Positions 40,990 to 41,520 of a stretch of 64,000 nt of DNA are shown here, piece by piece (position 1 is the stretch's first letter; each line of letters begins with the position of its first letter). Source of the stretch: a virus (Duplodnaviria > Heunggongvirae > Uroviricota > Caudoviricetes). The notes under the pieces were generated by a model. It had not been told where the DNA came from. It was given only the letters and a program-made list of their open reading frames with translations, and ran no database searches. A program made the translations under genes and the position numbers. Where the stretch lies: positions 1 through 64,000 of IMG/VR virus record IMGVR_UViG_3300045591_000029; one strand, written 5' to 3'.

Positions 40990-41520
40990 TGGTGGGCCTT
41001 CGGGGACTCGAACCCAGGACCGTCCGGTTCATATCTTGCTCACTTATCTACTAAGAACCTCCTTGGCAATATAATCCTTGGCGAAACAAATGCCTTTTAC
41101 TTGCCCGTTTCTTGTGGGAACTAATCGTAAATTCTTTTCAGTTTTTCCACACTCTGAAACTGGCACTAAATAACATTCATTTTCATACCAAGTACAGAAA
41201 TAATCAATATTATCATTTTGATAATTTGTGTGAGTAACTTTGCCATTTACGAAATGACTGGAGCAAGTTGCAAAATTTAATTTCTCCCCATCTGAGTTAC
41301 AAGTTTTAACTTGGATTTTTAATAGTTTATCACCAGTATCCAAAATAAAATCGTATCTCACAGGATTTTCTGGCGTGGATACCGTATACCCCAATTCCAG
41401 AAAATAAGTTTTACATTTTAATTCGGTAACAACACCTTTAATATTTGTATCCATAGTGTTTTATAGATATGGTTTTACATGATATGAGCCGGATGCTCTA
41501 ACCAACTGAGCTAAAGGCCC
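40990..41520 (-). tRNA. split tRNA-Met(CAU): 3' exon 40990..41029, insertion/intron 41030..41483, 5' exon 41484..41520
   Basis: 5' exon gggcctt-ta-gctcagttggttagagc-a-tccgg-ctcat; 3' exon aa-ccgga-cggtc-ctggg-ttcgagt-ccccg-aaggccc-a-cca; halves pair to a canonical cloverleaf with loop CUCAUAA only when the intervening 454 nt is removed. Confidence 0.6.
41044..41454 (-). CDS. PD-(D/E)xK nuclease (Hjc/I-Ssp6803I-like) encoded inside the tRNA-Met insertion
   Basis: TELK...GY.V..P....RYDFILD.GDKLLKIQVKT nuclease core; paralog of 50473..50892. Confidence 0.55.
   Translation of the reverse strand: MDTNIKGVVTELKCKTYFLELGYTVSTPENPVRYDFILDTGDKLLKIQVKTCNSDGEKLNFATCSSHFVNGKVTHTNYQNDNIDYFCTWYENECYLVPVSECGKTEKNLRLVPTRNGQVKGICFAKDYIAKEVLSR

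Follow-up and report, generated by a model that had tools for sequence, protein, structure and literature searches.

Introns in bacterial tRNA genes are currently seen as self-splicing elements, mostly of group I, and protein-dependent tRNA splicing is regarded as an archaeal and eukaryotic trait. Archaeal introns with bulge-helix-bulge (BHB) junctions can carry homing-endonuclease genes, an example being the rRNA intron that encodes I-DmoI, and their removal by proteins is established. The canonical BHB has two 3-nt bulges on opposite strands with a 4-bp helix between them and the splice sites in the bulges, and intron nucleotide −3 pairs with position 32. A further kind of ribozyme-less insert is found in bacterial 23S rRNA, where RNase III excises intervening sequences, no re-ligation follows, and the rRNA functions in fragments. 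Group I introns of bacterial tRNA-fMet that bear a PF11645 endonuclease gene are inserted at 33/34 (PMC13011429), and the Synechocystis intron is 655 nt long (PMC1995217). The free-standing enzymes SegB of phage T4 and F-Tfl of phage T5 have phage tRNA genes as their targets and promote transfer of the tRNA region from one co-infecting phage to another (PMC8421152). Here, we analyze an element that splits a tRNA(CAU) gene in a 64,000-nt stretch of Caudoviricetes DNA (positions 1 to 64,000 of the IMG/VR record IMGVR_UViG_3300045591_000029; hereafter the window), together with its relatives in other phages. It belongs to a widespread class of phage inserts that lack a ribozyme, yet form a strongly covarying exon–insert helix centered on both junctions.

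As an intervening sequence in a tRNA gene that bears a homing-endonuclease gene, the element is of a kind already known. With the PF11645 group I introns of bacterial tRNAs (cyanobacterial and Bacteroidota tRNA-fMet; tRNA-Arg(UCU)) it shares the enzyme family, the anticodon loop as target, an open reading frame (ORF) that begins ~27–35 nt after the 5′ junction, and the presence/absence polymorphism typical of homing. Whereas these bacterial introns are ~650 nt long, have a ~230-nt core that is seen by Rfam, lie at 33/34, and end in G, the phage element extends for 14–20 nt past the stop codon, shows neither a detectable core nor conservation of a terminal G, lies at 36/37, and has an exon–insert rod of its own. 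Judged by analogy, its architecture most resembles that of the archaeal protein-spliced introns carrying endonuclease genes, which are likewise ribozyme-less, reside in stable-RNA genes, have helix-defined junctions, and hold the ORF in the loop of a long stem. It differs from them in that the junctions lie within a continuous helix, the hosts are bacterial, the enzyme is of the PD-(D/E)XK rather than the LAGLIDADG type, and removal by proteins is hypothesized. The 23S rRNA intervening sequences also lack a ribozyme, interrupt a stable-RNA gene, and form a long helix from both ends, and a protein nuclease removes them; unlike the rRNA, however, a tRNA nicked in the anticodon loop would need sealing, and the 23S sequences have no homing-endonuclease gene. 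Distant PF11645 relatives are arranged in the manner of SegB and F-Tfl, beside intact tRNA-Asn and tRNA-Ile genes. The genes for SegB and F-Tfl lie between tRNA genes and leave these intact, whereas the gene of the phage element lies within the anticodon loop, flanked by covarying RNA structure.

In intron mode, ARAGORN calls the split gene tRNA-Met(cat) i(38,454) at 41520..40990. The 5′ half (41520..41484, minus strand; 37 nt) ends in CUCAU and reads GGGCCTTTAGCTCAGTTGGTTAGAGCATCCGGCTCAT, and the 3′ half (41029..40990, minus strand; 40 nt) starts with AACCGGA, ends in ACCA, and reads AACCGGACGGTCCTGGGTTCGAGTCCCCGAAGGCCCACCA. Joined, the exons give a 77-mer that ARAGORN treats as a normal tRNA with a canonical cloverleaf, a 7-nt anticodon loop, and one T-stem mismatch. 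A first-pass annotation made from the letters of the window had proposed that the two halves belong to one tRNA gene, split after anticodon position 36, and had suggested comparison with intron-less homologs. That comparison, now made, bears it out on both counts. The syntenic sister contig IMGVR_UViG_3300045988_042147 (L129), which is 96% identical over 133 nt upstream and 92.7% identical over 3,034 nt downstream, has the same locus without the insert; its uninterrupted tRNA is identical to the joined exons at 77/77 positions, and the window differs by exactly the 454-nt insert. The exons are thus fully conserved between the two alleles while their flanks differ by 4–7%. In the window sequence alone the junction is ambiguous by one A, and it is the family members and empty sites that fix it at 36/37. 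The identity of the tRNA, Met or lysidine-containing Ile2, is not readable from a CAU anticodon; we take the acceptor stem to be Ile-like in appearance.

The insertion is precise at two further loci, so that three independent comparisons of filled and empty sites are available. The window itself holds a second copy, which ARAGORN labels Asp(GTC) with the junction at 35/36. Six viral contigs carry an uninterrupted tRNA-Asn(GTT) that matches its exons, joined at 36/37, at 74–75 of 76 positions, and we therefore assign this copy to tRNA-Asn split at 36/37. The third case is the cultured Enterococcus phage EFP01 (Schiekvirus), which has a 463-bp insert in tRNA-Asn with an ORF 46% identical to that of the window. 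More than 30 related Schiekvirus genomes show the uninterrupted site, ...GGCTGTTAACCAGT... (also given as ...ACTGGCTGTTAACCAGT...), which makes the EFP01 junction, T36/A37, unambiguous. The EFP01 insert ends in ...GAAAGC, without target duplication. A search for target-site duplications or transposon-like ends revealed none, the junctions being exact both in EFP01 and between the window and L129.

A scan with an alignment of the ORF identified relatives at 45 IMG/VR loci, 33 of which lie inside a split tRNA according to ARAGORN and at least five more by eye (L021, L032, L037, L044, and L048). Taken together, no fewer than 36 IMG/VR loci, in addition to EFP01, have the element. About 12 tRNA species are hit (CAU, GAU, UAU, GUU, UUU, UGU, CGU, UCU, UAC, UGC, UGG, and UUA), always at 36/37, and the ORFs diverge to ~40% amino-acid identity. 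The split tRNA-Asn genes of L021 and L032 were overlooked by ARAGORN because the T arm of their 3′ exons is unusual, reading GAGAU AUCGUAA YUCUC instead of being of the usual GGUUCGAAUCC type. In the Ala(UGC) copies L041 and L058, for which ARAGORN offers a "stop" tRNA as the alternative, a G3:U70 pair lends independent support to both the Ala(UGC) assignment and the 36/37 junction. The hosts are bacterial, namely Enterococcus for EFP01 and Clostridia-type bins of metagenome-assembled genomes (MAGs) for the lineage of the window; all six matches to genome bins are gut or rumen Firmicutes MAG contigs, which are probably phage. More distant homologs stand free beside intact tRNA genes in Kuttervirus PM10 and the haloarchaeal virus HSTV-4 (tRNA-Asn) and in My1 (tRNA-Ile), and others abut intact tRNA genes at L045, L049/L050, and L059. 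Copies consisting of the rod without an ORF were absent from the ~335 tRNA calls inspected (ARAGORN intron calls combined with the pairing rule given below). We found no description in the literature of the element or of the split tRNA of EFP01; a study of Jug phages lists 80 PDDEXK_5 genes as stand-alone, and the searched portion of its text does not mention tRNAs. This class of mobile inserts in phage tRNA genes has apparently not been described before.

As a mobile element, the insert is a discrete unit centered on the gene for a homing endonuclease of the I-Ssp6803I type. Its 136-residue ORF product scores 81.1 bits against Pfam PF11645 (PDDEXK_5; cut-off 26.1, E = 1e-22), and a profile of this protein and four relatives has a single PDB match, 2OST (I-Ssp6803I; E = 1e-11). 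The catalytic D...QxK signature is kept, with D35, Q48, and K50 invariant in the alignment of relatives and aligned with YD...VQVK of 2OST. By homology, the protein is a member of the PD-(D/E)XK family of I-Ssp6803I, as had been proposed from the sequence. On DNA, I-Ssp6803I presumably leaves 3-nt 3′ overhangs, a point that plays no role in our conclusions. We considered whether the RNA helix described below mimics the DNA target of the enzyme; by inspection the right half has no match, and the left half and center match trivially because the anticodon stem is self-complementary. Very probably, the targets of the endonuclease are the anticodon regions of uninterrupted tRNA genes in co-infecting phages, and after the cut the element would be copied in by repair.

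The element contains neither a group I nor a group II ribozyme. Only 43 nt of the 454-nt insert are non-coding (29 nt before the ATG of the ORF and 14 nt after its stop codon), which leaves too little room for a group I core outside the ORF, as the first-pass annotation had already noted. Its framing of the insert in group I terms does not hold up otherwise. A search with Rfam found no match to group I (RF00028) at E ≤ 10 over 40900..41800, and none at E ≤ 1 in 20 loci with related elements, 22 elements being covered altogether. Two bacterial loci that encode close I-Ssp6803I relatives, with the ribozyme beside or overlapping the PF11645 ORF, served as positive controls and were readily detected, at 49.5 bits (E = 1.6e-10) in Anabaena (L063) and 56.3 bits (E = 1.4e-12) in Hymenobacter (L064). 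In the former, a 244-nt ribozyme interrupts tRNA-fMet and the ORF is located just downstream of the tRNA; in the latter, an intron of ~660 nt at U33/C34 ends in G, 27 nt separate the 5′ splice site from the start of the ORF, and the ribozyme core covers the 3′ end of the ORF and continues beyond it. The terminal G of the insert, which had been read as a mark of group I splicing, is not conserved: C is the last nucleotide in the second window copy and in EFP01, and A in the Lys, Thr, and Val copies. The G of the CAU copy is explained by the pairing of the last insert nucleotide with C34. Nor is the position after CAU the known group I site, since the PF11645-bearing tRNA-fMet introns lie at 33/34 (PMC13011429; Hymenobacter control). 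Finally, the end of the 5′ exon, the anticodon, pairs with the last three nucleotides of the insert by Watson–Crick or wobble pairs, and the 29-nt leader holds no guide sequence. With core, terminal G, and guide-sequence pairing all lacking, we reject the classification of the phage element as a group I intron. A GC-rich 176-nt spacer upstream of the split gene (41521..41696) was considered as a trans-acting ribozyme and discarded; its structure is modest (z = −2.2), and because it also adjoins the uninterrupted L129 allele it is not linked to the insert.

What the family does share is a predicted rod formed by the exons and the ends of the insert. It consists, in order, of the anticodon stem, a C32/A38 mismatch, a 7-bp helix (P1), an internal loop, and a second helix of 7–16 bp (P2). 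Junctions were assigned by anchoring on the anticodon stem and giving five loop nucleotides to the 5′ exon and two to the 3′ exon. In all copies, P1 then has the same register: U33 pairs with A37, positions 34, 35, and 36 pair with insert nucleotides −1, −2, and −3, and insert nucleotides 1–3 pair with −4 to −6. Accordingly, the last three insert nucleotides follow the anticodon: ATG for CAT, AGC or AAC for GTT, AAA for TTT, ACA for TGT, ATC for GAT, and GTA for both TAC and TGC. By eye, the rule also holds for TAT, CGT, TCT, TGG, and TTA. The expectation that the insert ends form a helix across the junctions was therefore right, and the details were not: the insert begins AUCA rather than with the "tcat" supposed to pair with "atga", and the actual helix has UCAU of the exon and AUC of the insert on one strand, and GAUAUG of the insert and A of the exon on the other. 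In P2, the leader pairs with the stop codon of the ORF and the codons just before it, so that the body of the ORF forms the apical loop. Folding of mini-inserts, in which the ORF body was replaced by a tetraloop, gave the same rod as the minimum free energy structure for 25/25 unique elements (mean z = −4.2).

The pairing in P1 is specific to its register and supported by covariation. The contiguous run of pairs starting from 34:−1 averages 6.7 bp, as compared with 0.28 for mismatched partners, and falls to 0.12–0.24 at register shifts of −3 to +2 and to 1.68 at +3. Across 26 distinct sequences, 90.4% of the cells are paired versus 55% in shuffles (0/500 reach the observed value) and 36–40% with a slid partner. 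Covariation is scored at 0.88 versus 0.21, with double changes in 15/16 pairs. The three pairs 34:−1, 35:−2, and 36:−3 are unbroken in all 26 sequences, a better record than that of the anticodon stem itself. The pairing is thus tightest exactly at the junctions, as predicted for a helix that defines splice sites. In 14 unique Asn copies, GUU is retained while the partner triplet varies between AGC and AAC. RNAalifold recovers P1 and P2 independently in two subgroups, with compensatory changes in 17/26 and 10/22 pairs, those in P2 including UAUCUA/UAGAUA, UAUCUG/CAGAUA, and UAUUUG/CAAAUA. The internal loop is conserved within subgroups (YUGAC opposite CUGAUGUG in group B, AAWAHCA opposite AGUGA in group A), and its sequences differ between them. 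A kink-turn or C/D-box reading of the group B loop (CUGA opposite UGAUGU) was considered and dropped, the loop sizes being a misfit for a standard K-turn. Both junctions are located inside P1, on opposite strands and three base pairs apart, and cutting at both would leave 3-nt 3′ overhangs. The coordinates of these and other features are collected in Table 1.

Table 1. Location of the two split tRNA genes, their inserts, and associated features in the window.
Feature	Position	Strand	Description and basis
5′ exon of split tRNA(CAU)	41484..41520	−	Acceptor 5′ strand, D arm, anticodon stem 5′ strand, loop nt 32–36 (CUCAU); same as 5′ part of intact tRNA in L129
Intervening sequence (mobile element), 454 nt	41030..41483	−	Between U36 and A37; ARAGORN i(38,454); missing in syntenic L129
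3′ exon of split tRNA(CAU)	40990..41029	−	A37 A38, anticodon stem 3′ strand, variable loop, T arm, acceptor 3′ strand, ACCA
P1, 5′ strand	41481..41487	−	U33, C34 A35 U36, insert nt 1–3 (AUC); 5′ junction inside strand
P2, 5′ strand	41463..41469	−	UAUCUAU, in 29-nt leader before ATG; RNAalifold consensus, compensatory changes
P2, 3′ strand	41045..41051	−	Overlaps last codons and stop of ORF; RNAalifold
P1, 3′ strand	41029..41035	−	Last six insert nt GAUAUG and exon A37, final AUG = anticodon complement; 3′ junction inside strand
ORF, 136 aa	41044..41454	−	PD-(D/E)XK homing-endonuclease homolog (PF11645, I-Ssp6803I family); D35, Q48, K50 invariant among relatives
Second copy, 5′ exon of split tRNA-Asn(GUU)	50924..50959	−	ARAGORN intron mode; six intact contigs
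Second copy, intervening sequence, 465 nt	50459..50923	−	Terminal C, not G
Second copy, ORF, 139 aa	50892..50473	−	PDDEXK_5-type paralog, 47% identical to first ORF
Second copy, 3′ exon of split tRNA-Asn(GUU)	50419..50458	−	ARAGORN intron mode; six intact contigs
Phage RNA ligase (PF09414)	25405..26667	−	Candidate sealing enzyme by inferred association; 41% identical to annotated RNA ligase of Bacillus phage Kirov
PIN-PhoH protein	14185..12812	−	Next to tRNA array
SPFH protein	16478..14982	−	
Thg1-like enzyme	20612..19788	−	
Three metallophosphoesterases	22814..22083, 23551..22808, 30729..29896	−	
RlaP nucleotidyltransferase	32285..31482	−	
DUF2828/DUF7788 protein	35340..33808	−	
Phage tmRNA	45841..46181		Bacterial-type

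These features lead us to put forward, tentatively, that the mobile intervening sequence is removed by proteins and the tRNA sealed by an RNA ligase. The pre-tRNA would be restored not by self-splicing but by a nuclease that cuts both strands of P1 at the two junctions, after which U36 would be joined to A37 by an RNA ligase; the same phage encodes such a ligase at a distance of 15 kb. Candidates for the nuclease are the intron-encoded enzyme itself or a double-strand-specific or structure-specific RNase of the host or phage. The proposal is favored by the concentration of the tightest pairing at the junctions, by an anticodon that stays fit for the tRNA body while its partner triplet varies, by exons that are identical to the intact allele at 77/77 positions between flanks that are 4–7% different, by the absence of any canonical Asn(GUU) gene other than the split one from the array of ~33 tRNAs in the window, and by the presence of genes for an RNA ligase and end-healing enzymes. 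The last belong to a cluster of RNA-repair or RNA-conflict genes that adjoins the tRNA array (12812..35340, minus strand). In its fullest form, the idea is one of protein-only tRNA splicing in bacterial viruses, in which the helix of anticodon and "anti-anticodon" would be cut on both strands and resealed by the ligase, in the boldest version with the PD-(D/E)XK enzyme of the insert making the cuts; this we consider rather unlikely. If the Hjc/I-Ssp6803I-like enzyme of the insert were the nuclease, it would offer a present-day parallel to the origin of the archaeal splicing endonuclease EndA from PD-(D/E)XK nucleases that has been proposed.

Several points weigh against restoration by proteins. 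That the split tRNAs are spliced is something we infer purely from sequence. The 3-bp stagger of the junctions follows from insertion at 36/37 combined with a bulge-free continuation of the anticodon stem; it is therefore trivial and names no enzyme. We know of no bacterial or phage enzyme whose cuts in the two strands of such a helix are staggered by 3 nt, and those of RNase III are staggered by 2 nt. The tRNA genes hit are those of phages and may be dispensable, and the bacterial PF11645 genes come with a ribozyme. No element was ever found in a bacterial chromosomal tRNA gene, all occurrences being in phage tRNA arrays and the MAG contigs that are probably phage. Enterococcus phages have no homolog of the ligase type of the window, and the iF6 paper does not mention an RNA ligase. 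Some copies also look decayed. In L002 (2950..3460; the same as L015), the ORF is 68% identical to that of the window and the P1/P2 rod is intact around the anticodon CGU, yet the 5′ exon is cut to ~19 nt and lies directly after an intact tRNA-Met; the rod can thus outlive the tRNA. In L016 and L039, which likewise appear decayed, P1 has mismatches.

The main alternative, which we consider possible but somewhat doubtful, is that no splicing takes place, the homing-endonuclease gene having entered its own target, inactivated a phage tRNA gene that is individually dispensable, and persisting through super-Mendelian drive. The rod and tRNA halves would then serve as a tRNA-scaffold-like mRNA shape that is resistant to nucleases and can be processed by RNase P/Z, or in the control of endonuclease translation, a role made plausible by the overlap of P2 with the end of the ORF. 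The lack of a detectable ribozyme, the confinement to phage tRNA arrays, and the decayed copies all fit this explanation, as does the viability of EFP01, all of whose relatives have an intact gene. Moreover, the free-standing enzymes next to intact tRNAs (PM10, HSTV-4, My1, L045, L049/L050, and L059) indicate that the family does not need an intron context. However, a scaffold would not need the strictest pairing to fall on the three anticodon pairs and the adjacent junction pairs rather than along the rod generally. Mere inactivation also sits poorly with an anticodon that remains right for its tRNA body, both in the copies with G3:U70 and UGC and in those with GUU opposite AGC or AAC, with exons identical to the intact allele between diverged flanks, and with a split gene that is the sole canonical tRNA-Asn of an otherwise near-complete array.

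Self-splicing by a cryptic RNA, either a reduced group I-like core overlapping the ORF or a new small ribozyme composed of P1, the internal loop, and P2, appears improbable. It could draw on the conservation of the internal loop within subgroups, on the U before the 5′ junction and the G before the 3′ junction of the window copy, and on the true group I relative in Hymenobacter, whose ORF likewise starts ~27 nt after the 5′ splice site. Against this, Rfam is silent on all 22 elements yet detects the controls, most of the family lacks the terminal G, and some copies have C or G as the final nucleotide of the 5′ exon. Nor does the 5′ exon end find its partner where a group I internal guide sequence would be, since it pairs with the 3′ end of the insert. 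ORFs that have diverged to ~40% amino-acid identity leave little room for an overlapping conserved RNA core, and the difference in internal-loop sequences between subgroups means that no catalytic core is common to them.

An archaeal-type intron, in which an EndA-like splicing endonuclease would cut at BHB junctions and RtcB would seal the ends, would account for the likeness to archaeal introns carrying endonuclease genes (pairing of exon and intron, a long stem whose loop holds the ORF, and pairing between anticodon and intron) and for the distant ORF homologs in haloarchaeal viruses, but is already contradicted by the anatomy of the junctions and exceedingly improbable: there are no 3-nt bulges, the last insert nucleotide pairs with position 34 where a canonical BHB pairs −3 with 32, the hosts are bacterial (Enterococcus; Clostridia-type MAG bins), the window has a bacterial-type tmRNA, and the haloarchaeal virus ORF stands free next to an intact tRNA. 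Indeed, the helix is unbroken from 33:37 to the pair of insert nucleotide 3 with −6, and the three anticodon pairs are unpaired in 0/26 sequences; the BHB-like helix suggested in the first-pass annotation thus gives way to one that is continuous, free of bulges, and in a different register. A non-exhaustive Pfam scan of 20 larger ORFs of the window gave no match to tRNA_int_endo (EndA-type).

Should the tRNAs prove to be restored, an unrecognized protein-based tRNA splicing would exist in bacteria or phages, probably tied to phage RNA-repair enzymes. Should they not be restored, the inserts would show clearly how a homing-endonuclease gene can persist through the destruction of the gene it targets and make use of the tRNA fold at the same time. 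We see a substantial chance that the mechanism of removal is categorically new for bacteria. This can be tested directly, since the element is present in the cultured phage EFP01 and absent from its close relatives. In either case, phage tRNA repertoires are under-counted, as standard tRNA finders miss or misname the split genes (Asn as Asp, Ala as stop suppressor).

One further motif recurs within the inserts. GGAGG is found 27–36 nt before the 3′ end of the insert in 16/24 unique elements (41058..41064 on the minus strand of the window), with one occurrence in 9,488 nt elsewhere, and is retained despite differing amino acids (AAG GAG G, UUG GAG G, UAG GAG G). None of the elements examined has a Shine–Dalgarno sequence upstream of its ATG. 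P2 would place GGAGG near the start codon; a role as a Shine–Dalgarno sequence acting after circularization of the insert was considered, and the motif is not universal.

Other RNA features were noted in the window and at the related loci. The tRNAs at 40913..40986 and 47955..48029 (both minus strand) have 8-nt anticodon loops, GUUAAAAG and CUUGUUAA, for which ARAGORN gives the 4-base anticodons taaa and tgtt, and may be quadruplet-decoding or frameshift-suppressor-like. The former lies 3 nt downstream of the split tRNA(CAU) and is conserved in L129. A suppressor tRNA with the anticodon CUA and a long variable arm is located at 49146..49236 (minus strand), and the endonuclease ORFs of L003 (3001..3411) and L004 (~2975..3440) contain in-frame TAG codons, which together imply reassignment of TAG in part of the phage group. 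tRNAs with the anticodon UUA occur at L001 5471..5543 and, split, in L043.

Genes of 117–160 nt with normal acceptor, D, and T arms and an anticodon region expanded by a hairpin and a common CGACAGCAA motif are present in the window (42825..42949, minus strand) and at L017 473..589 and L036 2288..2445. Such long tRNA-like genes, flagged by ARAGORN, were set aside as a different feature. Weak Rfam matches to YrlA (Y-RNA-like) occur near tRNA-like genes in L041, L036, and L048, and the long tRNA-like genes may be Y-RNA-like partners of the repair cluster. Still other phage tRNAs have inserts of 63–78 nt in the anticodon loop (L048 166..304 and 2689..2832, L057 167..319, and L039 2082..2230). Three of these four, the exception being L048 2689..2832, themselves match the Rfam tRNA model at 31–48 bits, with an acceptor-like stem that uses one or two exon nucleotides, a GGUUCAAAUCC T-arm, a UCCA tail in one case, and ambiguous junctions. 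They look like a tRNA-like element nested in a tRNA, and might be excised by RNase P/Z-type processing. In L018, sub-threshold matches resemble twister-P1 (417..482; 49.8 bits) and HDV (783..840; 33.5 bits), and L046 323..781 has a partial GOLLD-like match below threshold (106 bits). A full-length ROOL RNA (265 bits) lies ~500 nt downstream of the split tRNA of EFP01 (L007 3412..3998).

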